Assembly: GCA_023250195.1 (NCBI GenBank) | Contig: JAHFBF010000001.1 | Coordinates: 498,422 to 562,421 of the forward strand | DNA length: 64,000 bases | Direction of reading: 5' to 3' | DNA from: Candidatus Melainabacteria bacterium | Lineage (GTDB): Bacteria > Cyanobacteriota > Vampirovibrionia > 2-02-FULL-35-15 | Shown here: piece after piece, positions 20,539 through 53,357 of the stretch | How positions within the stretch are numbered: position 1 is the first letter of the stretch | Layout of the letters: each line of letters begins with the position of its first letter | Translations under genes and position numbers: made by a program | Notes under the pieces: model-generated | The model's input: the letters and a program-made list of their open reading frames with translations, nothing else | Database searches by the model: none | What the model was told of the DNA's origin: nothing

Positions 20539-20541
20539 ATT

Positions 20542-23348: not shown

Positions 23349-23355
23349 TTTTTTA

Positions 23356-25707: not shown

Positions 25708-25867
25708 ATAGTATTAACTACATAAAGACTAAAAATATACAATAGGAGAACATCGTTAGTAACATCAAACATTCTAACGTAAAAATTAAAACAGGAGTTT
25801 ACTCATCTTTATAAAAAGACTTTTGTAATAATGGACAGTCAAGTATTTAGTTTCGGAGGATTTTAAT

Positions 25868-34058: not shown

Positions 34059-34778
34059 TTAAATGTTTTTCAAGAAAAATTTGTATTCAATTATATAAAA
34101 GAGTGCAATAAAAAAATCTTTCCAGCTTCCACCTTTTTTTCCTTCTTCAAAAGAACGTCCACTATAACTTATAGGAACTTCTTTAATTTTCACACCCCTT
34201 TTTAACAGCTTATTTGTAACTTCAGAGCAAAACTCAAATCCACGACACTTTAAATTTAGACTTTTTATAAGTTCCGATTTAAAAGCTTTATATGCTGTAA
34301 ACTGGTCTGTTATTTTTATTCCATACAGAATACTTATTAAAACATTGAGCACTGTACTTCCCATTTTATTTAAGAATTTCATTTTCTTTATAGAACCAAT
34401 AAATCGTGATCCATACACTACATCAGCTTCACCCGCTAATATAGGCGCAATAATACTACTATAATCTTTTGGATCATATTCAAGATCACCATCTTGTATG
34501 ATTACGATATCTCCCTTGGCTTTTTTAATTCCCATACGAACAGCAGTTCCTTTACCACAATTTAAAATCAAATCATGTATTGTAATTTTATCTGCAAATT
34601 CTTTAAGAATTTCAGCTGTATGATCTATAGAACCATCATCTATAACTATTATTTCTTTTTTAACTCCTTCCGGTAAAGGAGCTGCAATTATTCGTTCTAA
34701 TATCTGCTTGAGGTGCATTCCCTCGTTATAAACAGGCATTATAACTGACAATAAAGTATTATTTTTGTTTTCTGGCAT
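34059..34778 (-). CDS. GT2 polyprenyl-phosphate glycosyltransferase (DPM1-like)
   Basis: LSVIMPVYNEG...VIDDGSIDHT...IQDGDLEYDP...YGSRF. 239 aa. Confidence 0.85.
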   Translation of the reverse strand: MPENKNNTLLSVIMPVYNEGMHLKQILERIIAAPLPEGVKKEIIVIDDGSIDHTAEILKEFADKITIHDLILNCGKGTAVRMGIKKAKGDIVIIQDGDLEYDPKDYSSIIAPILAGEADVVYGSRFIGSIKKMKFLNKMGSTVLNVLISILYGIKITDQFTAYKAFKSELIKSLNLKCRGFEFCSEVTNKLLKRGVKIKEVPISYSGRSFEEGKKGGSWKDFFIALFYIIEYKFFLKNI

Positions 34779-35032: not shown

Positions 35033-36634
35033 ATGAATAATATGATTTATGTGCTTGGTTCAGGTCCTGCAGGAGTTTCCTGTGCTTACTCTTTAGTTCA
35101 GCAAGGGTTAGAAGTAACAATGTTAGATAGTGGCATAGAACTTGAATCAGGTAAAAAAAGAATTCTAGAAACACTTAGCAATAGTAACCCTGAAGATTGG
35201 AATAAAAATCTTTTAGATAAAATAAAGAACAATCCCGGAGTAACTAGTAGTGGGCTTGATGAAAAGTGGTCTTATGGATCCGATTTCCCATATCGTGATG
35301 TAGACAAATACATTCCAATGGAAACCAACAATGTTGTTATCAGGCAAAGCTTAGCAAAGGGCGGCTTAAGCAATGTTTGGGGCGCTGCTGTATTGCCTTA
35401 TATTGATAATGATATTGTAGATTGGCCTATTTCAATTAGCGATCTAACTTCACACTATGAAGCTGTTTTTTCTTTTATGAACCTAGCTGCTGTATCTGAT
35501 GACCTTGAATCAATATTTCCTTTATATAGTAAAAATTACTCCGCGCTCAACCAATCCAGACAAGCAATGCTTTTCAAAAAAGACCTTGAATCAAACAAAA
35601 GTAAATTAAAAGCCAATGGTTTTATTTTTGGCAACTCAAGGCTTGCAGTGCAAGCAACTCCCTTCAAAAAAAAACCAGGATGTGTTTATTGTGGCTTATG
35701 TTTATATGGTTGTCCTTATGGACTAATCTACAATTCGTCAGATACATTAAATGAATTGCTTTACAAAGAAAATTTTCATTATATAAATAATGTCATTGTT
35801 GAAAGATTAAAAGAATCAAATGGCATAGTAAGTATTTCTGGGAAATCAAGAATAAGTGGTGAGAAATTAGATTTTAGTGGTTCAAGGGTTTATTTGGCTT
35901 GTGGCACAGTTTCTTCTACTAAGATATTACTCGAATCTATGGAGGCTTACGAACAAGAAGTTAAAATGAAGGATAGTCAATTGTTTTTAGTTCCAATGAT
36001 CCGGTACAAAAAAGCTCCAGATACTACTAGTGAGAACTTATATACATTACCCCAGCTATTCATTGAATTATTTGACCAAAATATTACAAGAAAAACTATT
36101 AATCTTCAGATATATACCTACAACGATCTTTACTTAAACATAATTAAAAACAGTTTCATTGGTCTGACTTATCCTCTTTTCAAACCATTGATCAATGAAT
36201 TCTTAGATCGATTAATAATAACTATGGGGTTTTTACACTCAGATGACTCATCAACAATTTTATTGAAATTAAAAAAACCTAGAAATAATGCATCGAGTAC
36301 TCTAGCCTTTAAATCACAAATTAACAAAAATACAAAGAGAATTTTTAAGCAGGTGCTTAAAAAAATTTCTCAGAATAGAAGTATGTTTAAGGCAATACCT
36401 GTCTCCATCGCTTCAAAAATAAAAATGCCGGGTCAGGGCTATCATATAGGAGGAACCTTTCCAATGAAAAGAAAACCTTCAAGTTTTGAAACTGACGTTT
36501 TAGGTCGTCCTTGCGGCTTTAATAGAGTCCATGTTGTAGATTCTGCTGTTTTCCCAAGTGTTCCTGCAACTACAACTACTTTAACGATAATGGCTAATGC
36601 ACATAGAATAGCTTCCGCATTCCACGAATTATAA
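35033..36634 (+). CDS. FAD-dependent GMC-type oxidoreductase with an internal CxxCGxCxxGCP motif (paralog 1)
   Basis: N-terminal dinucleotide fold VLGSGPAGVSCA...EVTMLDSG. CVYCGLCLYGCP at 35681-35716. GMC-like C-terminus VHVVDSAVFPSVPATTTTLTIMANAHRIA. Confidence 0.7.
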   Translation: MNNMIYVLGSGPAGVSCAYSLVQQGLEVTMLDSGIELESGKKRILETLSNSNPEDWNKNLLDKIKNNPGVTSSGLDEKWSYGSDFPYRDVDKYIPMETNNVVIRQSLAKGGLSNVWGAAVLPYIDNDIVDWPISISDLTSHYEAVFSFMNLAAVSDDLESIFPLYSKNYSALNQSRQAMLFKKDLESNKSKLKANGFIFGNSRLAVQATPFKKKPGCVYCGLCLYGCPYGLIYNSSDTLNELLYKENFHYINNVIVERLKESNGIVSISGKSRISGEKLDFSGSRVYLACGTVSSTKILLESMEAYEQEVKMKDSQLFLVPMIRYKKAPDTTSENLYTLPQLFIELFDQNITRKTINLQIYTYNDLYLNIIKNSFIGLTYPLFKPLINEFLDRLIITMGFLHSDDSSTILLKLKKPRNNASSTLAFKSQINKNTKRIFKQVLKKISQNRSMFKAIPVSIASKIKMPGQGYHIGGTFPMKRKPSSFETDVLGRPCGFNRVHVVDSAVFPSVPATTTTLTIMANAHRIASAFHEL

Positions 36635-36673: not shown

Positions 36674-38203
36674 TCAGCGATGAAACCATTTAGACAATAC
36701 CATTGATAATGGTTTGAACCACGATTCAATTTTTTCATATTCTTGCAGATTATGACCTCGTAGCTCATCATAATATCCCGTAATTGAAAAACTAATTCCA
36801 AAAAGTATACTACAAATTGCTGTTACAATCGAAAAGTATTTTAAAAACATTCTATATTTAGAATTTAGATCTAATACTGAATCAAAATAAAACCAGATTA
36901 TACAAGAACCTAAAATTAGTAATGTAGCAAAATCTGCAACATATCTCATCGTTGCACCGAATAACAGAGAAACTATAATTATCGATGAAACTGCTGTCAG
37001 CATTAAGATTGAGAACTCATAAATCGGGAAAATTATTTTATGTAAATTCTTGGAGCCTAAGCTAATTCGTTTAAAATAAAAAAGTGCTCCAATGATAATT
37101 AACAGAGTAAATGGAATGCCAGTAAAGACGCCAACAACCTTTTCAAGCCTGTAAGGAGCAGGAACTGGAATTGGAAATTCTGGTGGAGTTGGTAAAGAAG
37201 GATTAGAGTGAAATAAATATACAGAAGATGGGAATAAATGGAAATATGGGAAATGTATATTTATAGTGGGCTTTTGCATTAAATAAAAATAAAGACCTGG
37301 ACCAATTCTTCTAAAATCTAATTTCTTTGCATGCCTATAGTCTTCAGCAGCAAGTTGATAAGAAGAACCAAACTCAAATGGATTATCAAAGCGGGAGTAA
37401 TTATATGCAACTATTAGAACTAAGCATAGTGCAAATGGTGTTAATAAAGCTAAACAAGTTTTAATTCTTGCTTTTAAGCCTGCTTTTTGTTGAATTGATT
37501 TTAGATAAACTAACAATACAATAGTTCCAACAACTATAGCTCCAACAACTATAAAGTGTGGACGAGCACCTGAAGCTAATCCTAAAAATAGACTTCCTAA
37601 TATAATTAGACTTATAGAGAGATTTGAGTTAGAAAAAGCTCTGGAAAAAAGATACAAAGCACCTGTTAGAAAAAATAACCCACATGAAATAGCTACATCA
37701 TATACTGCAATAAAACGTAATAAGAAAGGTGCAACATTTGCAAAACCCAATACTACAATACTAAGAAGAATCTTCCATTCTTTGACCTCTTGAAAGTATT
37801 TTCTTTGTAAAAACAATAGAAAAGCTACAGACCATAAAAATCCTCCAAAGCTAAAAAAGAATATTGCAAAGCCATCAGGCATGTTATTTCCTGTAATAAG
37901 TTTGTATGGTAGTAGCAACGTTAGTACAGGAGTAATACCAAAATATAGATAATATTTACCTTTATACAGCGAGGCATCATGAAGTCTATAAGGGCCATTT
38001 TGATTTGGATCATAAGGATCACTTAGTGCTAGTAGTTGTGGGCTAGGTTCAATAAGTAGATGAGGCTTACCTGCAAGGAAAGCATCAGTGAGCAAAGCAT
38101 AATAAGAAGGATGATTTACATACAGTTGAAAATCACCTCTCCCAACAGTAGCTGTCCAAACATAAAACATTAAAATTATTAGTAAGCAAAGTTTAAGTTT
38201 CAT
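36674..38203 (-). CDS. Polytopic membrane protein, probable GT-C-like glycosyltransferase
   Basis: About 12 TM helices. The first extracytoplasmic loop is LSDPYDPNQNGPYRLHDASLYKGKYYLYFGITP. No soluble domain, and the family assignment is uncertain. Confidence 0.55.
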   Translation of the reverse strand: MKLKLCLLIILMFYVWTATVGRGDFQLYVNHPSYYALLTDAFLAGKPHLLIEPSPQLLALSDPYDPNQNGPYRLHDASLYKGKYYLYFGITPVLTLLLPYKLITGNNMPDGFAIFFFSFGGFLWSVAFLLFLQRKYFQEVKEWKILLSIVVLGFANVAPFLLRFIAVYDVAISCGLFFLTGALYLFSRAFSNSNLSISLIILGSLFLGLASGARPHFIVVGAIVVGTIVLLVYLKSIQQKAGLKARIKTCLALLTPFALCLVLIVAYNYSRFDNPFEFGSSYQLAAEDYRHAKKLDFRRIGPGLYFYLMQKPTINIHFPYFHLFPSSVYLFHSNPSLPTPPEFPIPVPAPYRLEKVVGVFTGIPFTLLIIIGALFYFKRISLGSKNLHKIIFPIYEFSILMLTAVSSIIIVSLLFGATMRYVADFATLLILGSCIIWFYFDSVLDLNSKYRMFLKYFSIVTAICSILFGISFSITGYYDELRGHNLQEYEKIESWFKPLSMVLSKWFHR

Positions 38204-39165: not shown

Positions 39166-39777
39166 TTATTTTACAACACAGCTAAATAAATTTAGTCCAA
39201 ATTTATGATACTCCATACGAATTTTACTAGGCTTAAATCCTGCTTTTACTAATAAAGGCCACAAATCTTTTTTATCATAATACATCTTATGATCATCCAT
39301 TTCTTCTTTAGGGCTTAGTCCAAACCTAAAAGCTGAAATCTCAAGAAAGTACTTCCCTAACCATGTTGGCACATTAATAATTAATACTCCATCTTCTTTT
39401 AAAAGTTGGTAAGAGTCTTTCAAAGCAGCCAAAGGATTATCAAAGTGTTCTAAAACAGAGTTCATTAAAATTAAATTGAATGCATTTGGCACAGTTTTTT
39501 TTAATGCTGATTCAACAGATTCTTCAATGAAATTTAGATTTTCAATTTTTTTTAATCTGTCTGAAATTGAAACATCAATACCCGTACCACTTTCTATATA
39601 CGGAATAAGTGAGAAAAGAAGCCTAGCATCATATCCACATCCAATATCAAGACAAAAAATTGGCTTTTTAATTTGATTTATTATAGCTTTAATTTTTATC
39701 AATGATAAATAACCACCAAGCTTGTCTACAATGCTTAATTTATGTTCTTCTCCATATGATTTTTTTCTATTTGTCAT
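39166..39777 (-). CDS. Class I SAM-dependent methyltransferase
   Basis: CLDIGCGYD (motif I), LILMNSVLEHF, GVLIINVP. Confidence 0.8.
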   Translation of the reverse strand: MTNRKKSYGEEHKLSIVDKLGGYLSLIKIKAIINQIKKPIFCLDIGCGYDARLLFSLIPYIESGTGIDVSISDRLKKIENLNFIEESVESALKKTVPNAFNLILMNSVLEHFDNPLAALKDSYQLLKEDGVLIINVPTWLGKYFLEISAFRFGLSPKEEMDDHKMYYDKKDLWPLLVKAGFKPSKIRMEYHKFGLNLFSCVVK

Positions 39778-40958
39778 TAAGTTTTATCCTCATTAATTTT
39801 TCTAGTTTTACTCATTGAGAATGATTGATAGACTAAATTAAAAAGAAATATTTGGATTCCACAAATTATTAAGAACAGTCCAAAAATAACATACCATGGA
39901 ATAATAGTTAATTTATAACTTTGCATACACCATTTAATGACTAAGGTTGAACATAGTATGAGTCCAAATAACAAAGATAGTAGGCTTAATATCATTCCAT
40001 TTGTATATGTAAAATAATTATATAAAAGATTTATTCCCTTATTTTTGATGTATCTATTTAGATCAGAAAATAATCTCACCAGAACACCCATTTGGGCAGC
40101 TGAAAGCCCTAATACAGAAAATGTAAGTCCAAGTAACATAAAATTAGTACTAAATGTAATTGCTCCTAATGTAATTGGTCCACCAATCTGCATGAAAATA
40201 AGAAAAAGACCTAACATTAAGAATAATAATCCTGGTTTAATTATCATTTGATCAGGTACATGCAACAACATAACTTTTAAATTTATCCATCCGGCGTACC
40301 AAGGAGAAAACCATCCTAATCTTAAATGATGACTTTTGCGTCCTTCTCTATCTTTATAAAAATTAATTGGGACTTCAGTACATTTAAGTTTAAGTAAACT
40401 TGCTTTAACTACCATTTCAGAAGCATATTCCCAGGATGAACTTTTAAGATCAATTTTTTTTAATGCATCATATGTCATTGCCCTTAAACCACAATGAATA
40501 TCAGAATAACTTGTACCTAAAAGAGAATTTAATATCTGTGTAGTTAAAGGGTTACCAAAATATCTGTGCAGAGCCGGCATAGCACCTTCTTCTATAAAAC
40601 CTTTCATCCTTGTCCCCATAACATATTCATATCCTTCATCCAGTTTACTTATAAATTTATTTATTTCTCTAAAATCATATGTACAATCTGCATCTCCCAT
40701 AACAATATATTTCCCTTTTATATGAGGAATCGAGTCAATATAAGCCTGCCCTAATCCATGTTTCGGCACATCAATGACTCTTGCACCCAGACTAGAAGCA
40801 ATTTGTGGAGTATTGTCAGCAGAACTATCCATGATAATTACTTCTCCAGAAGCTTCTGCAATTGACAACCCTTCAATTGCATTCTTAACCGTTTCAGCAA
40901 TTGTTTTTTCTTCATTAAGAGCTGGTATTACTATACTTACTTTTACGTTATTATTCAT
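39777..40958 (-). CDS. GT2 glycosyltransferase with a C-terminal multi-TM domain (ArnC/GtrB-like, extended)
   Basis: VSIVIPALNEE...IMDSSADNT...GDADCTYD...HCGLR, followed by about 4-5 TM helices. Confidence 0.85.
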   Translation of the reverse strand: MNNNVKVSIVIPALNEEKTIAETVKNAIEGLSIAEASGEVIIMDSSADNTPQIASSLGARVIDVPKHGLGQAYIDSIPHIKGKYIVMGDADCTYDFREINKFISKLDEGYEYVMGTRMKGFIEEGAMPALHRYFGNPLTTQILNSLLGTSYSDIHCGLRAMTYDALKKIDLKSSSWEYASEMVVKASLLKLKCTEVPINFYKDREGRKSHHLRLGWFSPWYAGWINLKVMLLHVPDQMIIKPGLLFLMLGLFLIFMQIGGPITLGAITFSTNFMLLGLTFSVLGLSAAQMGVLVRLFSDLNRYIKNKGINLLYNYFTYTNGMILSLLSLLFGLILCSTLVIKWCMQSYKLTIIPWYVIFGLFLIICGIQIFLFNLVYQSFSMSKTRKINEDKT

Positions 40959-42466: not shown

Positions 42467-43525
42467 TTACTTCTTACCACTTAGGGCTAACTTTAATTCT
42501 CTTTGAAGAGATTGTCTTCTGTTAAAAATGTTCATCATTACTTTTGATCCATCAAAATCAAATTTGAATCTCATTCTTCTTAACCCAGCATCAGCCATTG
42601 TACGGGTTAAATCAGACTGATATACCTTAGGACAGTAAAAAAGCATAAAGCCCCCTCCACCAGCTCCAAGAATCTTGCCTCCCAAAGCACCATTAGCAAT
42701 TCCAAGCTCATAGAGATCATCTATAGAAGAATTAGAAATCTTATTAGAGAGTTTTTTCTTTGTTCTCCAGTGTACATCCATAAGTTTTCCAAAATCATCC
42801 AAATTTCCTTTTGTAATTGCATCTACTGTTTTATAACCAATTTCTTTTATAGAATGAAGGCTGTCAACAACTATTTTATGTGTACTTGATTTTTTATCCT
42901 CTGCTGCTTTGCTCTGCTCTTTTAAAATTTCAGCAGTTGATCTTGTGGTATGCGTATAATAAACCAATAACGAGCTCTCTAACTCATCAATTACATCTTC
43001 AGAAATATCAGGTCTTTCAACCTTTACCTGTCCATCTCTGTCAATATTCAAAATAGTAAAACCACCAAAAGAAGCATTATACTGATCTTGTTTCCCAACC
43101 GGGTGTTTAAGTACATTCATTTCAATAAAACAAGCTTCCTCCGCTAACTCTTGTCTTGAAACATTTGCATTCTTATAACAATGGAGTCCATTTAAAAGCC
43201 CTACTAAATAACACCCTGAAGAACCAAGTCCTGTACCAGACGGGATATCCGCCATAGATTGGATTTCAATTGAGTCTTGTATCTTCATCAACTTTAAAGC
43301 TTCACGAGCTAAATCATGTTGAATTTCATCTACTTTAGAAACTTCTTCATACTTTGAATATTTAATCCTTATCAAGTCATCAACAATTGGAGTATTTAAA
43401 TTTATGTACATGTACTTGTCTATGGTTACTGAAAATACAAAACCACCAAAATCACTGTAATAAGAAGGCAAATCTGTACCTCCTCCTCCAAGAGTTATTC
43501 TAAAAGGCGTTCTAGTTATAATCAT
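42467..43525 (-). CDS. hddA: GHMP-family sugar kinase, D-glycero-D-manno-heptose 7-phosphate kinase-like
   Basis: MIITRTPFRITLGGGGTDLPSYY start and the GHMP ATP motif IPSGTGLGSSG. The sugar specificity is inferred from context. Confidence 0.75.
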   Translation of the reverse strand: MIITRTPFRITLGGGGTDLPSYYSDFGGFVFSVTIDKYMYINLNTPIVDDLIRIKYSKYEEVSKVDEIQHDLAREALKLMKIQDSIEIQSMADIPSGTGLGSSGCYLVGLLNGLHCYKNANVSRQELAEEACFIEMNVLKHPVGKQDQYNASFGGFTILNIDRDGQVKVERPDISEDVIDELESSLLVYYTHTTRSTAEILKEQSKAAEDKKSSTHKIVVDSLHSIKEIGYKTVDAITKGNLDDFGKLMDVHWRTKKKLSNKISNSSIDDLYELGIANGALGGKILGAGGGGFMLFYCPKVYQSDLTRTMADAGLRRMRFKFDFDGSKVMMNIFNRRQSLQRELKLALSGKK

Positions 43526-44246
43526 TTTTACCTCTCTTTTGCAAAACTTCTTCAGCTGTACTTAGTGCATCTTTTGTATCTATTGCCAGGACAAAACTAT
43601 CTGTTAAGTATCCTTTTAATTTATACCCATTTTTAAGTAGTTTAGGAAAAATGTCTTTCCCAAAATCAGAAGGCGGTTTATCTGGTATCATATCAAGAAT
43701 TTTATGCTCCAAAACATAAATTCCGGCATTTACATACCCCTTTATTCCATTTCCTTTACTTTTCCCTTCTATAAAAGAATTTAAATTATTATCCTTATCC
43801 ATTTCAATCACACCACCGGCGATTCCTGAATTTAATGATTTTTCAGGATCAAATAAAGCTATAGTTGCGATTAGTTTAGTACCATTATGAAAATCCAGCA
43901 TTTGATTTAAATTTATATCAGTATAATTATCCCCATAAATAACAAAAAACTGATCCTTTTTTAAGAAATTACCAACCTCTTTATTTTTAAGAGCACCACT
44001 TGTACCAAGTAATTCACTTTCAAATGAATACTGGATTTTTACATTCCATTTACTACCATCTCCACAATAATCTTTAATAACATCCCATTTATAGTGAAGA
44101 GTTATACAAACATCCTCAATACCATGTTTTTTCAGAAGTAAAATATTATGCTCTAAAACTGGTTTTCCATTAATCTTATACATTGGCTTTGGAATATCAA
44201 GCCCAAGTCTTGAACCTAATCCAGCTGCAAGAATAATAGCTTTCAT
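43512..44246 (-). CDS. hddC: Sugar-1-phosphate nucleotidyltransferase, heptose-1-phosphate guanylyltransferase-like
   Basis: MKAIILAAGLGSRL...KPM signature of the NTP-transferase family. Overlaps the hddA-like kinase gene. Specificity inferred from context. Confidence 0.7.
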   Translation of the reverse strand: MKAIILAAGLGSRLGLDIPKPMYKINGKPVLEHNILLLKKHGIEDVCITLHYKWDVIKDYCGDGSKWNVKIQYSFESELLGTSGALKNKEVGNFLKKDQFFVIYGDNYTDINLNQMLDFHNGTKLIATIALFDPEKSLNSGIAGGVIEMDKDNNLNSFIEGKSKGNGIKGYVNAGIYVLEHKILDMIPDKPPSDFGKDIFPKLLKNGYKLKGYLTDSFVLAIDTKDALSTAEEVLQKRGKNDYN

Positions 44247-45373
44247 TTTTTTACCAGGTTAGTGGCTTTTCTAAGCACATTTTGTTTTTTCATTACTTCT
44301 TCAATTTCCTGATATCTGTCTTTTAAATCAGGTTGTTCATAAACCCATTTTATATAATCTCGGAATATATCTTCTAACGAGTGTTCATTTTTCCAACTAA
44401 GTTTTTTAAGTTTCTCACTTATAGAAACTGTATGCCTGGTATCACCATATCGATAGTAACCCGGAATTAGCGGCTCAATCTTTTTGTTTAAAACACTAAT
44501 TAAAATTTTCGTGTATTCTAAAAGATCTGTCCCTTTTTCACCACCTACATTAAAAGCTTCATAGTCAGCTTGAGAACTCTCAAATGCAAGAACATTCGCT
44601 CTTGCTACATCAAGGACATGAACATAATCTCTAAGTTGCTTTCCATCTTCATAAATAACCGGCGGTTTATTATTTATAAGCCTAAGAGTAAATATTCTAC
44701 AAACACCAGAATATGCATTAAAGAATGAATTTCTTGGACCCTGAACAATAGAATACCTCATCGAAACAGTTGGAATTGAATATCTTTTACCCAACTTGAC
44801 TGCTAATCTTTCCAATGCTTCTTTTGATATCCCATAAGCTGTAAAAGGATTGGTTACTGCTTCATCTATCAGAACAGACTTCATATACTCTTTACATCCA
44901 GCAACAGGACAATATATTTCCCAATCAGAACTTTCTAATTGTTTGATAATTCTACTGTCAGGATATTGAACGCCATGAGTTTTGCAATTATATTTTCCTT
45001 CACCATAAATTGACTGAGAGGAAGCTAAAACGATTTTCTTTATATCCAATTTTTTTTCAACTATAATTTCAAATATAAGTGCCGTACTAAAAGTATTCAC
45101 CCTGATAAAATTGCTAAAGTCAGTCATATAATCCTGGTAAGCAGCTAAATGAAATATTCCTTCAACACCTTCCATTGCTTTTTCTAAAACTGCCTTATCA
45201 GATACATCTCCCTGGATAAACTCTACTTCAGAAGATAAATATTTAGGTTTTCCATAAGGGTGGACTCTTGGTTGGAGCAAATCCAAGACTTTAACTTTGT
45301 ATCCTTTTTTAAGCAAAAGATCTACAGTATGAGATCCTATAAACCCTGCGCCACCTGTAACTAATACTTTCAT
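44243..45373 (-). CDS. NAD-dependent nucleotide-sugar epimerase/dehydratase (extended SDR)
   Basis: VLVTGGAGFIGSH and YGISK. ATG at 45373 (MKVLVTGG) is preferred, because the longer TTG start at 45394 lies inside the upstream hairpin element. Confidence 0.85.
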   Translation of the reverse strand: MKVLVTGGAGFIGSHTVDLLLKKGYKVKVLDLLQPRVHPYGKPKYLSSEVEFIQGDVSDKAVLEKAMEGVEGIFHLAAYQDYMTDFSNFIRVNTFSTALIFEIIVEKKLDIKKIVLASSQSIYGEGKYNCKTHGVQYPDSRIIKQLESSDWEIYCPVAGCKEYMKSVLIDEAVTNPFTAYGISKEALERLAVKLGKRYSIPTVSMRYSIVQGPRNSFFNAYSGVCRIFTLRLINNKPPVIYEDGKQLRDYVHVLDVARANVLAFESSQADYEAFNVGGEKGTDLLEYTKILISVLNKKIEPLIPGYYRYGDTRHTVSISEKLKKLSWKNEHSLEDIFRDYIKWVYEQPDLKDRYQEIEEVMKKQNVLRKATNLVKK

Positions 45374-45460
45374 CTTTTTTATAGGTTCAGACAAGCTGAA
45401 CCTTCCTTCTGTTATTTCCTTTCGCAGGATCGGATTTGCCGGATAAACCGGACAAATCCT
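45374..45460 (-). promoter_or_regulatory. Two-hairpin 5' element, copy 4, ending at the ATG of the epimerase/dehydratase gene
   Basis: The reverse complement reads AGGATTTGTCCGGTTTATCCGGCAAATCCGATCCTGCGAAAGG...GGTTCAGCTTGTCTGAACCTATAAAAAAGATG. Very close to copy 1. Confidence 0.65.
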
Positions 45461-45545
45461 ATAGTTGAGATTCGATATGTCATAGTGTTTGTTATTCTAA
45501 AGTATTATATACTGTTTTGAATAATAAGAAAAGAATCTAAGAAAT

Positions 45546-46541
45546 ATGAAAAATAATGTTTTGATTATAGGTGCTGGCAAAATAGGATCAATCAGAGCTA
45601 AAGTTGCTAAAAAGTTATCATCAAAGTCCAATTTATATATTTTTGACACTGACTTAGACAAAGCAAAAGTTCTTGCACAGGAAGTAAATGGAAAAATCGT
45701 TTACTCACTCAATGAAGGACTAAAAAATAAAAATATTCAGATAGTTATCGTTTCTGTTATTAATAAGAATACAAAAGATGTCTGCATCTCTGCTTTAAGA
45801 AACAAAAAGCATGTGCTTTGCGAAAAACCTATGGGAACTGGCTTTAAAGAAGCTCTTCAAATTTATAAAGCAGTAGAAAAATTTAAAGTGAAATTTAAAT
45901 GTGGTTTTAACCATCGTTATCACCCGGCAATACAAGAGGCTTACAAACTATGCTCACAAAAAAAAATTGGTAAAATTCTATATGTAAAAGGATCTTATGG
46001 GCATGGAGGCAGAAAAGGTTATGACAAAGAATGGCGTGCTAAAAAGTCTTTAAGTGGTGGTGGTGAATTATTAGATCAAGGCTCTCATTTATTGGATCTT
46101 TGTCATTGGTTCTTTAAATTTGAAAAAATCAAAGACGTTTATTGTATTGCAAAAACAATGTTTTGGAACATGGAGGTTGATGACAATGCGTTTGTACTTA
46201 TTGAAACGAAATCTGGTAAAGTAGCACAAATTCATGCTACCTGGACACAATGGAAAAATCTTTTTAGATTTGAAATCTATGGTACAAAAGGAGCAATAGA
46301 AATTAATGGCCTTGGGAAATCCTATGGAAGAGAAACATTAAAACTTTTTATAAGGAAAAATCCGGGACAGCCGCCACAAATTATTGAAAAGTCATTTACA
46401 GGTCGTGATAAATCATGGGAGCTTGAGTGGCTGGATTTTATAAATAATATAAACTCAAATATTACCTACAAGAGACTAATGTCAAATCATAAAGAATCTC
46501 TAGAAGTAATGAGAACAATTACCAAATTATATAGTCAATAA
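45546..46541 (+). CDS. Gfo/Idh/MocA family NAD(P)-dependent oxidoreductase
   Basis: VLIIGAGKIGS Rossmann motif, the conserved CEKP motif (VLCEKPMG), and C-terminal alpha/beta domain length. Confidence 0.85.
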   Translation: MKNNVLIIGAGKIGSIRAKVAKKLSSKSNLYIFDTDLDKAKVLAQEVNGKIVYSLNEGLKNKNIQIVIVSVINKNTKDVCISALRNKKHVLCEKPMGTGFKEALQIYKAVEKFKVKFKCGFNHRYHPAIQEAYKLCSQKKIGKILYVKGSYGHGGRKGYDKEWRAKKSLSGGGELLDQGSHLLDLCHWFFKFEKIKDVYCIAKTMFWNMEVDDNAFVLIETKSGKVAQIHATWTQWKNLFRFEIYGTKGAIEINGLGKSYGRETLKLFIRKNPGQPPQIIEKSFTGRDKSWELEWLDFINNINSNITYKRLMSNHKESLEVMRTITKLYSQ

Positions 46542-46547
46542 ACACAT

Positions 46548-47264
46548 ATGCATTACCTTTCGATTGTAATACCCGCTTATAATGAAGAAAAAAAAATTGC
46601 AAAGGATATAACAGCTGCGTATAAATATTTTAAAGAATATTCAATTGATGGAGAAGTAATAATTATAGATGATGGCAGCACTGATCAAACTTATAATATT
46701 GCTTCAGGTTTTTCAAAACAGTTCCCATCCTTAAAAGTAATTACCTACAATAAAAATAGAGGGAAAGGCTATGCAACGAAAACCGGCATATTAGGTGCAA
46801 CAGGCGAATATATTTTACTTGCTGATTCCGGATTATGCGTACCTTTTAAATGTGCAACCATAGGTTTAGAGCTCTTAAAACCTGGAGTTGATATTGCTAT
46901 AGGCTCAAGAAAAACATCTGATGAAAGAGTTAAGATCTTAGTTAAGCAGCCATTCTATAGAAGATTTGGCTCACAAATATTTAAACTTTTAATTCAGCTG
47001 TTTAAAGTTATTCCAAAAGGTATTGATGATTCTCAATGCGGTTTTAAGTTGTTTAAAAAAGAAGCAGCTCATAACATTTTTAAAAAAATGTTTACTAATA
47101 AATTTATGTGGGATATTGAAATGTTAAGAAGGGCAAAAAACGAGAATTATACAATAGTGGTTTTTCCAGTAGAATGGTCCAATGACTCAGATACTAGATT
47201 TAATCCATTTATTGGTTCTTTTGAAAACTTATTTCAGGTAATAAACATAATTCTTAGAACATAG
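46548..47264 (+). CDS. GT2 polyprenyl-phosphate glycosyltransferase (DPM1/Alg5-like)
   Basis: LSIVIPAYNEE...IIDDGSTDQT...LADSGLC...QCGFKLF. 238 aa. Confidence 0.85.
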   Translation: MHYLSIVIPAYNEEKKIAKDITAAYKYFKEYSIDGEVIIIDDGSTDQTYNIASGFSKQFPSLKVITYNKNRGKGYATKTGILGATGEYILLADSGLCVPFKCATIGLELLKPGVDIAIGSRKTSDERVKILVKQPFYRRFGSQIFKLLIQLFKVIPKGIDDSQCGFKLFKKEAAHNIFKKMFTNKFMWDIEMLRRAKNENYTIVVFPVEWSNDSDTRFNPFIGSFENLFQVINIILRT

Positions 47265-47306
47265 TATTCTTGGGGTATATTAAAAGTATTGAAAGAGGTA
47301 AAACTC

Positions 47307-47924
47307 ATGAACTACATAAAAACATATCTGGAACAAACTTCAAAAATTGCACTTATGCTTGATCAGGACAAAATTCTTCAGGCAGTTAACCTCTTAAAAA
47401 CTGTCAGGCAGGACAAAGGCAGGCTTTTCTTTCTTGGCGTAGGCGGCAGTGCAGGAAATGCTTCACATGCAGTTAATGATTTTAGAAAAATCGCTGGAAT
47501 CGAATCTTATGCTCCTACTGACAATGTTTCAGAACTTACCGCTAGAGTTAATGATGATGGATGGGATTCCGTTTTTTCCAGCTGGTTAAAGGTCAGCAAT
47601 CTAAACTCAAAAGATGTTTTAGTCATTTTTTCAGTCGGCGGCGGAAGTATAGAAAAGAACATAAGCACAAATCTGGTTAAAGCTCTAAATCATGCAAAAA
47701 CAGTAGGAGCAAAAACCCTAGGTATAGTCAGCAGAAATGGCGGTTATACAAAAGAGGTTGCTGACTGCTGCATATTAATTCCCACACTAAGCCCGGAAAC
47801 AGTAACACCACATGCAGAAGAATTCCAGGCAATCGTATGGCACTTATTGGTTTCACATCCTGAAATTCAAAAAAATCAGATGAAGTGGGAAAGCACAGCC
47901 CAAACAGCCACAAGCAAAAAATAA
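47307..47924 (+). CDS. gmhA: SIS-domain sedoheptulose 7-phosphate isomerase
   Basis: GRLFFLGVGGSAGNASHAVNDF SIS motif. ATG at 47307 is preceded by AGAGG. Adjacent to gmhB. Confidence 0.75.
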   Translation: MNYIKTYLEQTSKIALMLDQDKILQAVNLLKTVRQDKGRLFFLGVGGSAGNASHAVNDFRKIAGIESYAPTDNVSELTARVNDDGWDSVFSSWLKVSNLNSKDVLVIFSVGGGSIEKNISTNLVKALNHAKTVGAKTLGIVSRNGGYTKEVADCCILIPTLSPETVTPHAEEFQAIVWHLLVSHPEIQKNQMKWESTAQTATSKK

Positions 47925-48496
47925 TGGATAAAGCAATCTTTTTGGATCGTGATGGTGTTATAAATTATCCGGTTTTAAATCCAAAAACAAATGAGTACGA
48001 AGCCCCTGCAAATAAAGACGACTTTAAATTATTTCCTGGAGTAATGGAAGCTCTAAAAGAGTTACAAAAGTCAGATTACAAACTATTCCTGGTTTCAAAT
48101 CAACCTGATTATGCAAAAGGGAAAACCGCTCTTGAGAACCTTCATCTGGTTCATAATAAAATGGATTCTATATTAAAAGAAAATAACATTGTTTTTACAG
48201 AATATTATTATTGCTATCATCATCCTAAAGGAATCATTCCTGAGTATTCATTTGAATGTAAGTGCAGAAAACCTGGGAATTTATTCTTAACTCAGGCACA
48301 AATAAAATACAAACTGGATTTTTTAAAATCCTGGATGGTTGGTGACAGTGATGTAGATATCTTTTGTGGTCAGTCAGCCGGTGTAAGAACAATATTGGTC
48401 AAAACAAAGGAATCTGCCCATAGAATAGGGGAAAGTACCCCTGAGCATATAGTTAACAATTTACAAGAAGCTGTTGAAGTGATAAAAAGGGAGTAA
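47924..48496 (+). CDS. gmhB: HAD-IIIA D,D-heptose 1,7-bisphosphate phosphatase
   Basis: AIFLDRDGVIN (DxDxT-type motif I), VSNQ, zinc-site Cys pattern CYHHP...CKCRKP, GDSDVD. Start at the TAATG overlap with gmhA. Confidence 0.85.
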   Translation: MDKAIFLDRDGVINYPVLNPKTNEYEAPANKDDFKLFPGVMEALKELQKSDYKLFLVSNQPDYAKGKTALENLHLVHNKMDSILKENNIVFTEYYYCYHHPKGIIPEYSFECKCRKPGNLFLTQAQIKYKLDFLKSWMVGDSDVDIFCGQSAGVRTILVKTKESAHRIGESTPEHIVNNLQEAVEVIKRE

Positions 48497-48513
48497 GTAT
48501 AAAGGAGATATTT

Positions 48514-49257
48514 ATGTTAAATATAAAAGATCTAAAAATTAAAATCTTTGCAGATGGAGCTGATATTAAAGCAATGGTTGAGGCCTATAAGCAGGGAATC
48601 GTAAAAGGCTTTACAACAAATCCTACTTTAATGAAAAAAAATGGACTTACAGACTATGAATCTTTTGCAAAAGAAGTCTTAAAGAATATTTCTGACAGAC
48701 CAATTTCATTTGAAGTTTTTTCAGATGAGTTTAATGAAATGGAATTACAGGCAAAAGAGATAGCTTCCTGGGGAAAAAATATAAACGTAAAAATTCCTAT
48801 TACAAACACTAAAGGACAATCCTCAATCCCACTTATTAAAAAGCTTTCAAGCGATGAATTATCACTTAACATCACAGCAATTTTAACTGTAGAACAAGTT
48901 AAAGAAGTACAAAAGGTTTTAAATCCCAATACTTATAATATTGTTTCTGTCTTTGCTGGAAGAATTGCAGACACAGGTAGAGATCCAATGCCTTGCATGA
49001 TTGAATGTGCAAAAATATTAAAACCTCTGCCAAATACAGATCTTCTATGGGCAAGCTCAAGAGAGCTTTTGAATATATTTCAAGCGGAGCAAACCGGCTG
49101 TCAAATTATTACTGTAACACCTGATATTTTAAAAAAATTGTCCGGCGTAGGAAAAGATCTTACTGAACTTTCACTTGATACAGTAAAAATGTTTTACAAT
49201 GACGCTTGTCAAGCTGGATTTAAAATCAACACAGACAAAGTAGGAAGCAAAAAATAA
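48514..49257 (+). CDS. tal: Transaldolase / fructose-6-phosphate aldolase family (short form)
   Basis: FADGADI...GFTTNPTL...NVKIPIT...VFAGRIADTG are family motifs. Confidence 0.8.
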   Translation: MLNIKDLKIKIFADGADIKAMVEAYKQGIVKGFTTNPTLMKKNGLTDYESFAKEVLKNISDRPISFEVFSDEFNEMELQAKEIASWGKNINVKIPITNTKGQSSIPLIKKLSSDELSLNITAILTVEQVKEVQKVLNPNTYNIVSVFAGRIADTGRDPMPCMIECAKILKPLPNTDLLWASSRELLNIFQAEQTGCQIITVTPDILKKLSGVGKDLTELSLDTVKMFYNDACQAGFKINTDKVGSKK

Positions 49258-49270
49258 CTTTTAAAGCATT

Positions 49271-50827
49271 ATGATTTATGTAGTCGGTTCAGGACCTGCA
49301 GGTATATCTTGTGCTCATGCACTCTTGTGCAAAGGACTTGAAGTTACTATGCTGGATTCAGGTATAGAACTTGAGAGTGAGCGTGCAAAGATTCTAGAGA
49401 AATTTGTTAACTCTAAACCAGAAAGTTGGGACTTAGATTCAATTCATACAATTAAAGGAAATACTGTTGCGAGTACCAGCGGTAGTTTTTTTAAAGGTGT
49501 TTATGGCTCTGATTTTCCGTACAGAGAAGTAACTGCATACATCCCTCATGAAGCCAAGAACGTTCAACCAAGAATCTCCCTGGCAAAAGGCGGATTAAGC
49601 AATATATGGGGTGCTGCTGTTCTGCCATATATTGATGAAGATCTTGCCGATTGGCCTTTATCAGTAAAAGAGCTTACTTCTCATTATGAATCTGTGCTTT
49701 CATTTATGGATCTTGCTGCTGTTAATGATGACCTGGTTAATAAATTTCCTCTCTACAGCAAAACTTATAAGCCTTTAAATCCTTCTAATCAGACTATAGA
49801 TCTAATGAAAGATCTTGAATCAAGTAAAAGTATTTTAAACTCCAAAGGTTTTTTATTTGGTCATTCACGTCTTGCTGTAAATTCTAATTGCGTTTACTGT
49901 GGACTTTGTCATTATGGCTGTCCTATAGGTGCTATTTATAATTCTTCCAGCACATTAGAAGAACTTAAAAAAAACAAAAGCTTTCATTATATAAAAGATG
50001 TAATTGTACAAAAGGTTTCAGAGTTAAATAATAAAGTCAATATATCAGCAATTACAAGAACAAAAAATGAACCTATTACCTTTACAGGCGAAAGAGTCTA
50101 TTTAGCCTGTGGAGTAATCTCAACAACAAAAATTTTACTTGAATCACTTGAAGCTTATGATAAAGAGTTAACAATAAAAGACAGTCAGTGGTTTTTAATT
50201 CCTTTAATCAGATACAAAAAGTCCCCTGGTATTGTAAATGAAAATTTATACACACTGTCACAATTGTTTGTTGAATTATTCGATTTAAACTTAAGTAAGA
50301 ATACTATTAATCTTCAGCTCTATATGTACAATGATCTTTTTCTAAATGCAATAAAAAATATTTTAGGTTTCACGTATCCCTTATTTAAATTTCCTGTTAA
50401 CGAACTATTGGATAGACTTATGTTGATTATGGGTTACTTACATTCTGATTCCTCTTCTGCTTTTTCCGTAAAACTTGAAAAGAACACTTCTAAGCTCATA
50501 ATGGAAGCAAAAATCAATAAGAACGTAAACAAAACTATAAATGGTGTCTACAAAAAGATATTTGAGAATAGAAACTTATTTAAAGCAATTCCAATACCAG
50601 GTATTACAAAGATTCCAAACCCTGGCTATGGTTCACATTCAGGTGGTAGTTTTCCTATGAGATTAAAGCCAAAAGATTTTGAGACAGATTCTTTAGGAAG
50701 ACCTTCTGGGTTTTTCAAGGTCCACGTTGTTGATTCCACAGTTTTTCCAAGCATTCCTGCTACTACCATTACATTAACTGTTATGGCAAACGCTTATAGG
50801 ATAGGTTCTGCATATAATGAAATATGA
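49271..50827 (+). CDS. FAD-dependent GMC-type oxidoreductase with an internal CxxCGxCxxGCP motif (paralog 2)
   Basis: Colinear with 35033-36634 at well over half identical residues by eye. VVGSGPAGISCA; CVYCGLCHYGCP at 49888-49923; VHVVDSTVFPSIPATTITLTVMANAYRIG. Confidence 0.7.
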   Translation: MIYVVGSGPAGISCAHALLCKGLEVTMLDSGIELESERAKILEKFVNSKPESWDLDSIHTIKGNTVASTSGSFFKGVYGSDFPYREVTAYIPHEAKNVQPRISLAKGGLSNIWGAAVLPYIDEDLADWPLSVKELTSHYESVLSFMDLAAVNDDLVNKFPLYSKTYKPLNPSNQTIDLMKDLESSKSILNSKGFLFGHSRLAVNSNCVYCGLCHYGCPIGAIYNSSSTLEELKKNKSFHYIKDVIVQKVSELNNKVNISAITRTKNEPITFTGERVYLACGVISTTKILLESLEAYDKELTIKDSQWFLIPLIRYKKSPGIVNENLYTLSQLFVELFDLNLSKNTINLQLYMYNDLFLNAIKNILGFTYPLFKFPVNELLDRLMLIMGYLHSDSSSAFSVKLEKNTSKLIMEAKINKNVNKTINGVYKKIFENRNLFKAIPIPGITKIPNPGYGSHSGGSFPMRLKPKDFETDSLGRPSGFFKVHVVDSTVFPSIPATTITLTVMANAYRIGSAYNEI

Positions 50828-50854
50828 GAATGGGTTTATCATTATAATAGAATC

Positions 50855-51739
50855 ATGAATCAAGAAGAAAAAAAATGCATTATCTCCGGTACAGGTGGCT
50901 TTGTCGGTTCACACATTAAAAACTTTTTTCTTCAAAATGGTTGGAAAGTTTATGAATTAAAACACTCTATTCAAAACGGAAATACAAGCAACAAATATTT
51001 AATACCTTTCTCCTTAGAGGGTAAAATTGACAGTAAAATCTTTCAGAATATAGAAATTCTTATTCACTGTGCTTATGATTTCAAGCAAAGCAATTGGGAA
51101 GATATTTTTAATGTCAATGTTAATGGCAGTATAAATCTCCTTAAAGCAGCAAAATCAGCAGGTGTACAAAAAATTATTTTTATATCTACAATTGCTGCAT
51201 TTGAAAACTGTAAATCCATGTATGGAAGAGCAAAGCTTGAAATTGAAAAAGAGGCTTTAAAATTAGGAGTTACTGTTATCCGACCAGGACTTATTTACAG
51301 CCAAAATGCAGGTGGAATGTTCGGTGCACTAAATAAAGTAATTTCACTTCTTCCGATAATTCCAGTTATAGGAAGCGGAAATAATGTAATGTTTTTAATT
51401 CATATAGATGATTTATGTAAGCTGGTATATAAGCTTTCTACAGGTGAAATTAAAAGTCCCTCAAGTCCAATAATAGCTGCATATGAAAAAGGTAAAACCT
51501 TCAGAAATATTTTAGATATTTTATTAAGCTCCAAAAGCAAAAAAGCATTTTACATGTCTATTCCATATAATTTAGTACTTGCAATGCTAAAAGTACTTGA
51601 AGGTTTAGGATTAAGAATTCGCTTTAGAAGTGACAACCTTATAAGTATGATGAATTATGACCCAAACCCGCATTTTGATCTTGAGGTATCAAAAAGTATT
51701 CAGCTCAGAGATTTTAATATTCAAAGCCTAAATTCCTAA
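50855..51739 (+). CDS. NAD-dependent epimerase/dehydratase family protein (SDR)
   Basis: ISGTGGFVGSH Rossmann motif and YGRAK (YxxxK). 294 aa. Confidence 0.8.
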   Translation: MNQEEKKCIISGTGGFVGSHIKNFFLQNGWKVYELKHSIQNGNTSNKYLIPFSLEGKIDSKIFQNIEILIHCAYDFKQSNWEDIFNVNVNGSINLLKAAKSAGVQKIIFISTIAAFENCKSMYGRAKLEIEKEALKLGVTVIRPGLIYSQNAGGMFGALNKVISLLPIIPVIGSGNNVMFLIHIDDLCKLVYKLSTGEIKSPSSPIIAAYEKGKTFRNILDILLSSKSKKAFYMSIPYNLVLAMLKVLEGLGLRIRFRSDNLISMMNYDPNPHFDLEVSKSIQLRDFNIQSLNS

Positions 51740-51768
51740 GTCAATACTTACAAATATGATGGGGGTGT

Positions 51769-51878
51769 AAATTTTTCGAGGATAGTTGTCATTCCCGCGA
51801 AAGCGGGAATCCAGAAAAGTAACGATTTCGATAATTTACTGGATTCCTGGTCAAGCCAGGAATGACATCCTCGAATTT
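51769..51878. mobile_element. Non-autonomous palindromic element (GTCATTCCCGCGAAAGCGGGAATCC type) with terminal inverted repeats and flanking direct repeat
   Basis: TIRs AAATTTTTCGAGGAT / ATCCTCGAATTT. Core GTCATTCCCGCGAAAGCGGGAATCCAG ... CTGGATTCCTGGTCAAGCCAGGAATGAC. Flanks CTTACAAATATGAT (51747-51760) and CTTACAAAcccaaaTATGAT (51879-51898). No coding capacity. Confidence 0.6.
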
Positions 51879-52016
51879 CTTACAAACCCAAATATGATAT
51901 ATTATATTTTCTGGGCTTGGAAGTAAACGCAGATAAGCGAAAAGCGTTGCGAAGAGCAATACTTTGAGTGCCGGGAGGAAGAGAAAACATTTAAGCCTAA
52001 ATGTTTTCAAAAATAA

Positions 52017-53357
52017 ATGAATATAACAGTTATCGGTCTTGGTTACGTAGGATTAGTTACTGCAGCATGTTTAGCTGAACTTGGACATGAAGTCTTAGGA
52101 ATTGATATTGACCTTGAGAAAATCAAACTCCTGAAAGATGGACAGATGCCAATTTATGAACCTGGCTTAAGAGAACTTGTTTCAAAAAATGAATCGGAAG
52201 GCAGATTAATTTTTACAAATGCTTTTAGTTCTGAAGTTGATAAATCTGATCTTATCTTTTTAGCAGTTGGTACTCCATCAAAAGAAAATGGCGTTCCTGA
52301 TGTAAGTGCAATTTACAAAGCAATTGATTCATTGATTCCATTTATCAAGAAATATAAAATCTTTATTGTAAAATCTACCGTTCCAGTTGGCACAAACTTT
52401 GAAATAAAAAAATATTTACAATCTAAGTTAAATTCTGAATTTGAAGTTGTTTCAAATCCTGAGTTTTTAAAAGAGGGGGCCGCTGTCCAGGATTTCATGA
52501 AACCAGACAGAATTGTAGTTGGCACAGATAATATAAAAGCTTCTGAAATAATGAAAGAGCTTTATTCTCACTTTACAAGAAACGGTCACCCAATATTGAT
52601 CATGGATTTAGTATCAGCTGAAACAGTAAAATATGCAAGCAACTTAATGCTGGCTTTGAAAGTCTCATTTATAAACGAACTCGCTCTGCTCTGCGATTCA
52701 ATAGGAGCAGATATAAGGAGAGTAAGAGAAGGGGTAATAAGTGATCCGCGTATAGGTTCCAATTTTTTATATCCTTCAATTGGGTTTGGCGGCTCATGCC
52801 TGCCAAAAGATGTTCAGGCAGTTGCTCATCTATGTAAAGAAAAATCTATAAATCTTTTAATACCTGAAGCTGTTCTTTATGCAAATGAAAATCAATCAAG
52901 CTGGTTTATAAATAAAATAGCAGGCTGGTTTAAAAGTGGATTAAAAAACAAAACTCTTGCTGTATGGGGCACCAGCTTCAAGGCCGGTACAGATGACATT
53001 AGAGAATCTCCAGCAATAAGGATAATTGAAGGCTTAGCAAAGTTATGTACCAGGCTAAAATTATATGATCCTATTGCCTTAAAAAATACAAAAAAACACT
53101 TCGAAGATTTTCAATTTAAAGACAAAATTGAATATGCAAAAAATGAAATAGATTCAATTAACGGAGCAGATGGGCTTGTAGTCTGTACAGAATGGCTTCA
53201 GTTTAGAAGTCCAAACTTTGAAAAACTTTCATCCTCTTTGAAGGACAAAGTAATTTTCGATGGCAGAAATTTATATGATCCTGAAAAATTAAAGTTATAT
53301 GGACTAAGTCATGTTGGTGTGGGAATCCCTGCTAATAAGGTAAAAGCCGGGGTTTGA
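52017..53357 (+). CDS. ugd: UDP-glucose 6-dehydrogenase
   Basis: MNITVIGLGYVGLVTAACLA, catalytic GFGGSCLPKD, and C-terminal UDP-binding domain (GTSFKAGTDDIRESP). Confidence 0.93.
   Translation: MNITVIGLGYVGLVTAACLAELGHEVLGIDIDLEKIKLLKDGQMPIYEPGLRELVSKNESEGRLIFTNAFSSEVDKSDLIFLAVGTPSKENGVPDVSAIYKAIDSLIPFIKKYKIFIVKSTVPVGTNFEIKKYLQSKLNSEFEVVSNPEFLKEGAAVQDFMKPDRIVVGTDNIKASEIMKELYSHFTRNGHPILIMDLVSAETVKYASNLMLALKVSFINELALLCDSIGADIRRVREGVISDPRIGSNFLYPSIGFGGSCLPKDVQAVAHLCKEKSINLLIPEAVLYANENQSSWFINKIAGWFKSGLKNKTLAVWGTSFKAGTDDIRESPAIRIIEGLAKLCTRLKLYDPIALKNTKKHFEDFQFKDKIEYAKNEIDSINGADGLVVCTEWLQFRSPNFEKLSSSLKDKVIFDGRNLYDPEKLKLYGLSHVGVGIPANKVKAGV

Follow-up and report, generated by a model that had tools for sequence, protein, structure and literature searches.

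Only two systems are known to epimerize a sugar after its attachment to the lipid carrier: the DprE1/DprE2 pair, a prime target for tuberculosis drugs, and one enterobacterial O-antigen short-chain dehydrogenase/reductase (SDR). The latter enzyme, the ORF13 epimerase of Citrobacter youngae O2, belongs to a three-component pentofuranose system, and the authors of that study were aware of no epimerases in such systems besides theirs and DprE1/E2 (PMC11127046). Here we analyze a 64,000-nucleotide stretch of contig JAHFBF010000001.1 from a Candidatus Melainabacteria bacterium (hereafter, the window), which encodes two paralogous GMC-fold flavoproteins, P0002 (paralog 1) and P0001 (paralog 2), the second of which is directly followed by an SDR, P0003. 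The flavoproteins are a new, uncharacterized variant of the iron-sulfur (Fe-S)-containing GMC dehydrogenases. We consider it about an even call that the P0001-P0003 pair performs an oxidize-then-reduce epimerization of a polyprenyl-phosphate-linked sugar, possibly a heptose in this organism, in a manner analogous but not homologous to DprE1/DprE2.

Fe-S sites in GMC enzymes are already known, only in periplasmic dehydrogenases of two or three subunits. In the alpha subunit of the flavin adenine dinucleotide (FAD)-dependent glucose dehydrogenase of Burkholderia cepacia (BcGDH), Cys212, Cys218 and Cys222 hold a 3Fe-4S cluster that relays electrons from FAD; the cluster loop, Glu197–Asn229, lies at the protein surface, and its Cys213 forms a disulfide and is not a cluster ligand (PMC6719666). 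In acetol dehydrogenase (AceDH), the four cysteines of the motif CDQCGFCFQGCT (Cys187/190/193/197) are ligands of a 4Fe-4S core, supplemented by a Cu, approximately 11 Å from the FAD (bioRxiv 10.64898/2026.06.11.731722). The initial annotation of the window, made from the sequence alone, had regarded an Fe-S site as atypical for GMC enzymes, a view that these two precedents contradict.

The two window flavoproteins, the only copies of the family in this 2.2-Mb genome, are encoded by the reading frames originally assigned to them, are 60% identical over their full length, and share the N-terminal FAD-binding beta-alpha-beta motif GSGPAG (residues 6–11, within a start of the form MIYV-GSGPAG). 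Their Pfam matches to GMC_oxred_N/C and Fer4 are weak, the sole one to pass being that of P0002 to PF05199 (GMC_oxred_C; 30.3 bits against a cut-off of 24.6); P0001 scores 20.4 and 19.7 with the two GMC models, both under the cut-offs. The AlphaFold2 (AF2) model of P0001 has a mean predicted local distance difference test (pLDDT) score of 94.9 and is matched to GMC structures by Foldseek with a probability of 1.00. The best matches are to the BcGDH alpha subunit (8grj_B/6a2u_B; E 5e-24, TM-score 0.73), followed by the large subunit of Gluconobacter fructose dehydrogenase and then by pyranose oxidases and C-glycoside oxidases. The best fold matches are also the best sequence matches, the family profile aligning with 6a2u at E 1.8e-17 and with many other GMC entries in the Protein Data Bank (PDB).

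Both paralogs carry the motif CVYCGLC[HL]YGCP, and the underlying spacing, CxxCxxCxxxCP, occurs at no other position among the six-frame open reading frames (ORFs) of at least 100 amino acids (aa) in the window. The motif of P0002 was located correctly in the initial annotation, and that of P0001 starts one base later than the 49888–49923 given there. In the profile alignment to 6a2u, C207, C213 and C217 of P0001 coincide with Cys212, Cys218 and Cys222 of BcGDH, C210 falls on Asn215, and His456 is aligned with the BcGDH active-site histidine. Because its cysteines align with the ligands of the BcGDH loop, the motif represents a loop of the FAD domain, in line with the AF2 model, rather than the inserted ferredoxin-type domain that had been considered. 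The comparison with AceDH shows that, within CxxCGxCxxGC, the spacing and both glycine residues are identical in the two motifs. Given the aligned BcGDH ligands and the spacing shared with AceDH, it is very probable that members of the family hold a [4Fe-4S] cluster.

Conservation of the site, which had been proposed from the two paralogs, was assessed in 144 full-length representatives of 50%-identity clusters. C207, C210, C213 and C217 are kept in 143, 139, 143 and 144 of them, respectively, Gly216 in all 144, Pro218 in 134, and His456 in 140. The Rossmann fold of the flavoprotein begins at residue 2, which, together with the coupling and fusion to an NAD-dependent SDR described below, argues for a cytoplasmic location. 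A purely structural role for the four cysteines, which would bind zinc or form disulfides and thereby stabilize the loop with no Fe-S electron transfer, has a parallel in the disulfide made by Cys213 of the BcGDH loop (PMC6719666), but it is very improbable: three of the cysteines lie exactly on crystallographic 3Fe-4S ligands, the same CxxCGxCxxGC spacing holds a 4Fe-4S core in AceDH, disulfides are unlikely in a cytoplasmic protein, and the cysteines, Gly216 and Pro218 are almost invariant.

A word-indexed search recovered more than 1,480 homologs of the flavoprotein, the most informative of whose names are "choline dehydrogenase-like flavoprotein", "GMC family oxidoreductase" and "4Fe-4S ferredoxin-type domain-containing protein". 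When representatives of 50%-identity clusters were searched exhaustively with HMMER, 3,098 matched at E <= 1e-3, of which 909 reached E <= 1e-30; this family of more than 900 representatives has no curated NCBIfam or Pfam model and no characterized member. Bacterial loci come from Anaerolineae, Verrucomicrobiota, Acidobacteriota, Actinomycetota (Dactylosporangium, Catelliglobosispora), Myxococcota, Dormibacterota, Gemmatimonadota, Ignavibacteria and the candidate phyla radiation (CPR), and archaeal loci from Woesearchaeota, Micrarchaeota and Methanosarcinales. The flavoprotein-SDR pair reaches across at least ten bacterial phyla, DPANN and methanogen-related archaea, and CPR. Within the class to which the window belongs, the flavoprotein family occurs patchily, as an accessory trait: of 61 sampled genomes, 3 have it, all from the window's own family, and the genome of the window is the only one in this sample with two copies. 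The glycan island as a whole looks accessory and was possibly transferred. The sole fusion longer than 907 aa is P0279 (997 aa, from a Parvularculaceae metagenome-assembled genome (MAG)), a distant family member, 35% identical, in which a signal-anchored N-terminal domain of 475 aa with no Pfam match is fused ahead of the flavoprotein; it is uninformative on the substrate.

The partner of P0001 starts 27 nt past the stop codon of the flavoprotein gene and contains the GxxGxxG and YxxxK motifs. Pfam identifies P0003 as an extended SDR (PF01370 at 2.5e-16 versus adh_short at 0.004), and a comparison of 30 orthologs shows no variation at G12/G15/G18 or at the catalytic S111, Y123 and K127. Its relatives in the PDB are likewise extended SDRs, namely GalE, MoeE5, NSDHL and NDUFA9-like proteins; DprE2 is absent from its PDB and NCBIfam matches.

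The pairing itself, inferred originally from this one locus, holds widely. We collected 80 loci from species-representative genomes and several more from metagenomes, and counted SDR adjacency by tblastn in the 78 loci with enough downstream DNA. In 63 of these loci, which span many phyla and include archaea, the flavoprotein gene is immediately followed, in the same orientation, by that of an SDR ortholog approximately 38–44% identical to P0003. In addition, the two proteins are joined in natural in-frame flavoprotein::SDR fusions (P0166 of 829 aa, P0225, P0230 and the product of locus L022). An ortholog of a DegT aminotransferase is present in 3 of the 15 loci that have no SDR versus none of 66 loci that have one (Fisher p = 0.005, on a small sample). 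The occurrence of DegT only where the SDR is missing is consistent with a keto-sugar intermediate whose fate is either reduction or transamination. The three DegT genes (L001:5938-7197 from a cyanobacterium, L044:3336-4565 from a Myxococcota MAG, and L069:13822-15057 from a Chthoniobacter MAG) encode proteins approximately 46% identical to one another, and each stands alongside a gene for a GT2 with a transmembrane (TM) region and no SDR gene. These loci may represent a form of the module that makes amino sugars.

The genes around the pair tie the family to lipid-carrier glycosylation, in which we infer that it functions. Of the 53 fully flanked loci, 43 have a GT2 of the AglJ, dolichyl-phosphate (Dol-P) hexose transferase, PpgS or ArnC type no farther than 5 kb away, and this neighboring polyprenyl-phosphate-type GT2 often has four C-terminal TM segments. 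Two metagenomic loci (L002 and L003) contain the operon GT2-flavoprotein-SDR-PMT_2, the last gene being of the GT-C type, and in a woesearchaeotal locus (L088) a PMT-GT2-GtrA-methyltransferase cluster is divergent from the flavoprotein gene. Unbiased clustering of the neighbors in 82 loci retrieved the SDR, GT2 and polytopic membrane proteins as recurrent partners, and neither this clustering nor the window operon showed a conserved small subunit with a twin-arginine translocation (Tat) signal or a cytochrome. A conserved neighbor of 635 aa has no Pfam match.

The same types of genes surround both paralogs in the window (Table 1). Downstream of paralog 1 and convergent with it, the polytopic membrane protein has about 10 hydrophobic segments and an AF2 model with a pLDDT of 92. 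It models as a GT-C-fold glycosyltransferase: its top 50 PDB matches are almost all GT-C enzymes (AglB, ArnT, PglB, STT3, Emb, Aft, ALG9/12, PMT), the best at E 6.6e-5, with TM-scores of 0.4–0.5. The family of this protein (P0280) has no Pfam model and approximately 190 homologs annotated as 'hypothetical'; one of these, P0352 (769 aa), is fused to a GtrA_DPMS_TM domain, and the structural search of the Atlas links the P0280 family to an Acidobacteriota cluster of 635 aa, which may be the conserved 635-aa neighbor mentioned above. The soluble GT2 divergent from paralog 1 has its best NCBIfam match to AglJ (7.9e-37), followed by ArnC, Dol-P hexose transferase and PpgS, and none of these matches reaches its cut-off. 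The GT2 with four TM segments is 37% identical to a Hydrococcus GT2_TM_C protein and AglJ-like at 2e-35, and its orthologs occur in 54–55 of the 82 loci, mostly just after the SDR. For four window GT2s and for the conserved partners, the best NCBIfam models are AglJ, Dol-P hexose transferase, PpgS and ArnC, under the equivalog cut-offs in every case.

A run of seven plus-strand genes, none separated from the next by more than 27 nt, has P0001 in sixth place; the order is Gfo/Idh/MocA, GT2, GmhA-like SIS, GmhB-like HAD, transaldolase, flavoprotein, SDR; the transaldolase scores 342 bits with TIGR02134, above the cut-off. A divergent minus-strand operon encodes the GHMP kinase, the nucleotidyltransferase, epimerase/dehydratases, methyltransferases and the GT2 with the TM tail. 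A promoter and terminator scan of 45300–52100 gave no excess over shuffled sequences.

Table 1. Features of the window: positions, strands and supporting evidence.
Feature	Position	Strand	Evidence
P0001, paralog 2, 518 aa; GMC-fold FAD dehydrogenase with Fe-S loop, assigned to the cytoplasm	49271..50827	+	ORF and translation
Cys loop CVYCGLCHYGCP of P0001 (C207, C210, C213, C217); predicted [4Fe-4S] site	49889..49924	+	motif search
P0003, extended SDR, 294 aa; conserved reductase partner	50855..51739	+	PF01370 E 2.5e-16
P0002, paralog 1, 533 aa; same family as P0001, no SDR of its own	35033..36634	+	ORF and translation
Cys loop CVYCGLCLYGCP of paralog 1	35681..35716	+	motif search
Soluble GT2, 239 aa, polyprenyl-phosphate glycosyltransferase type; divergent from paralog 1	34059..34778	-	PF00535
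Polytopic membrane protein, 509 aa, convergent on paralog 1; models as GT-C fold, uncatalogued family	36674..38203	-	
GT2, 393 aa, four C-terminal TM segments	39777..40958	-	ortholog of GT2 accompanying the pair in other phyla
GHMP kinase and nucleotidyltransferase, completing a nucleoside diphosphate (NDP)-heptose route	42467..44246	-	
Gfo/Idh/MocA oxidoreductase, first gene of the plus-strand run	45546..46541	+	
GT2, 238 aa, same operon as paralog 2	46548..47264	+	PF00535; NCBIfam PgfS, AglJ, ArnC, PpgS, all below cut-offs
GmhA-like SIS isomerase, GmhB-like HAD phosphatase and transaldolase, directly upstream of paralog 2	47289..49257	+	

In one further locus, L031:344-12389 from a Myxococcales MAG, the same gene set as in the window occupies approximately 12 kb: epimerase, nucleotidyltransferase, GHMP kinase, SIS, HAD, transaldolase, GT2-TM, a protein of about 12 TM segments, flavoprotein and SDR, all on one strand except the 12-TM ORF, with the SIS protein 57% identical to that of the window. 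A general tie between the pair and heptose genes was considered and rejected, as just one of the 82 other loci has such genes alongside the pair. Because the heptose-type set co-occurs with the GT2-TM, the flavoprotein and the SDR in L031, a lipid-linked heptose is a reasonable if speculative substrate in the window, and the sugar there may thus be a heptose.

The heptose genes also bear on the principal competing explanation, in which the same chemistry acts on a soluble nucleotide sugar, such as an NDP-heptose made by the flanking genes, before a GT2 transfers it to the lipid carrier. The pair directly follows the GmhA-like, GmhB-like and transaldolase genes and lies near the kinase and nucleotidyltransferase, the set recurs in L031, and the flavoprotein has no membrane segment; moreover, remodeling of NDP-heptose at C4, C3 and C5 is established at the nucleotide level in Campylobacter. 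We nevertheless regard this explanation as unlikely. The single heptose-bearing locus among the 82 others compares with polyprenyl-phosphate-type GT2s in approximately 80%, in L002 and L003 the GT2 gene precedes the pair and the GT-C gene follows it, and a nucleotide sugar is normally epimerized by one SDR alone, which uses its bound NAD and has no need of a flavoprotein that passes electrons outward.

The substrate of the flavoprotein might, with still lower probability, be something other than a carrier-bound monosaccharide: a polyprenol or other lipid alcohol, in a reaction of the cholesterol oxidase/3beta-HSD or DHRSX type, or a finished glycan or glycoside, in a reaction like that of glucoside 3-dehydrogenase. 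Cholesterol oxidase and the C-glycoside and pyranose oxidases are indeed among the GMC relatives, the SDR has weak 3Beta_HSD and NSDHL-like matches, and two loci have no glycan genes nearby. We consider these substrates improbable, as no transport or hydrolase genes hint at catabolism, the alternative partner DegT points to a keto sugar, and sugar-transfer enzymes are the conserved neighbors.

Oxidation and reduction on the lipid carrier would proceed in four steps. A polyprenyl-phosphate-type GT2 would place the sugar on the carrier. The flavoprotein would then oxidize a secondary hydroxyl of the carrier-bound sugar to a ketone, with His456 as the putative active-site base and the two electrons passing from FAD through the surface [4Fe-4S] cluster predicted at Cys207/210/213/217 to an external acceptor, such as a quinone or a ferredoxin-like carrier. 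P0003, with NAD(P)H, would reduce the ketone from the other face and so yield the epimer; in the minority of genomes where DegT replaces the SDR, an amino sugar would result instead. Finally, after flipping, the remodeled polyprenyl-phosphate sugar would serve as donor for the island's GT-C enzymes. A quinone is a possible acceptor because COX1, NuoH and one UbiA-family gene are present in the genome, although no match to MenA (TIGR00751) or cytochrome bd was found there. The UbiA-family gene, the only one in the genome (G000:C1:270516-271687), lies outside the window and adjoins a weak extended-SDR match.

Several observations weigh against a carrier-bound substrate or against the scheme as a whole. 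No sequence feature proves a lipid-linked over a nucleotide-linked substrate, and the flavoprotein, as noted above, has no predicted TM segment. A GtrA-type flippase (PF04138) was not matched in the 98.9%-complete genome. The second catalytic position, His or Asn in classical GMC enzymes, is occupied by Thr499 in the alignment. Paralog 1 stands without an SDR of its own in a genome with a single SDR ortholog; it could share P0003 or hand its keto sugar to another enzyme. The SDR is missing from 15 of the 78 loci, and two of the SDR-less loci examined (L086 and L087) have no glycan genes around them. Literature searches yielded no characterized family member and no link between GMC enzymes and polyprenyl-linked sugars.

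The observation made in the initial annotation, a pair of Cys-motif flavoproteins with one SDR partner, is thus confirmed, and its interpretation is partly supported. The DprE1/DprE2-like oxidize-then-reduce logic that it invoked fits the GT2/GT-C neighborhood as a functional resemblance between proteins that are not homologous, and sugar epimerization, on a lipid or a nucleotide, is a putative activity. In its widest form, our proposal is that a widespread [4Fe-4S]-FAD GMC dehydrogenase and an extended SDR constitute a non-homologous counterpart of DprE1/DprE2 that epimerizes polyprenyl-phosphate-linked sugars at the cytoplasmic face of the membrane to supply new donors to GT-C enzymes, with a DegT swap leading to amination, and with the two paralogs of the window serving two GT2/GT-C branches, one of them for a lipid-linked heptose. 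So extended, the proposal is tentative, and we lean slightly against its being correct in every part.

If true, a second, unrelated and far more widespread pair than DprE1/DprE2 would explain how donors for GT-C enzymes are diversified in many uncultured lineages, and would add tools for glycoengineering. It would also reveal a biosynthetic, cytoplasmic branch of the Fe-S GMC dehydrogenases, which are so far known as periplasmic catabolic and biosensor enzymes.

No Pfam match was found for three window ORFs, of 450, 509 (the polytopic membrane protein next to paralog 1) and 1,496 aa. The last of these (11027–15517, minus strand) has two hydrophobic segments near its C-terminus. The region from 18640 to 28975 encodes several FG-GAP repeat proteins, with PTPS_related (PF10131) polytopic membrane proteins and a GT2 interspersed among them, and one ORF of 1,035 aa joins approximately 10 TM segments to FG-GAP repeats.

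Compared with the characterized Fe-S GMC enzymes, the family is closest to the BcGDH alpha subunit (6a2u, 8grj; PMC6719666) and the large subunit of Gluconobacter fructose dehydrogenase (7w2j), its best matches, which have the same GMC fold. With BcGDH, it shares the position of the Fe-S loop, three cysteines on the 3Fe-4S ligands and the aligned catalytic histidine. In contrast, the identity to these two enzymes is only approximately 17%, and a fourth cysteine at the position of Asn215 completes the full CxxCxxCxxxCP. Neither the small subunit that serves as the Tat hitchhiker nor the (multiheme) cytochrome c subunit of BcGDH and fructose dehydrogenase is encoded near members of the family, which are assigned to the cytoplasm, are coupled or fused to an NAD-dependent SDR, and appear to act in glycan biosynthesis rather than in periplasmic sugar oxidation. 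AceDH (GmcA/GmcB of Methylacidiphilum fumariolicum; bioRxiv 10.64898/2026.06.11.731722), compared by its published motif, likewise has a GMC alpha subunit with C-x2-C-G-x-C-x2-G-C. However, the last cysteine is followed by Thr in AceDH and by Pro in the family, and AceDH is a periplasmic enzyme that oxidizes acetol and requires a Tat-signal beta subunit contributing a Cu ligand, a partner that is not conserved here.

Among carrier-level epimerases, ORF13 resembles the proposed pair in acting within a side-chain glycosylation system composed of a GT2 (or PPPRS), a flippase and a GT-C enzyme (PMC11127046), but it is a GalE-like protein that acts alone, without a flavoprotein. As to the other components of three-component extracytoplasmic glycosylation, the GT-C fold is represented by the polytopic protein next to paralog 1 and by the adjacent PMT_2/PMT genes in L002, L003 and L088; the GtrA flippase, not found in the genome of the window, is present in the archaeal L088.

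By every membership test, the pair falls outside DprE1/DprE2. DprE1 has the VAO/ALO fold and no Fe-S cluster, whereas the family has the GMC fold with an Fe-S site and no homology to it; the DprE1-type ALO domain is not matched anywhere in the genome of the window. DprE2 is a classical SDR (approximately 250 aa, adh_short), whereas P0003 is an extended one, and the lipid-linked sugar would come from a GT2 here and comes from a UbiA-type phosphoribosyltransferase there. What the pair has in common with DprE1/DprE2 of Mycobacterium and the Gram-negative arabinofuranose homologs (PMC11127046) is the arrangement: the genes for a flavoprotein oxidase and for an NAD(P)H reductase adjoin each other and stand beside those for a polyprenyl-phosphate sugar synthase (here, a GT2 that is a candidate for this role) and GT-C transferases.

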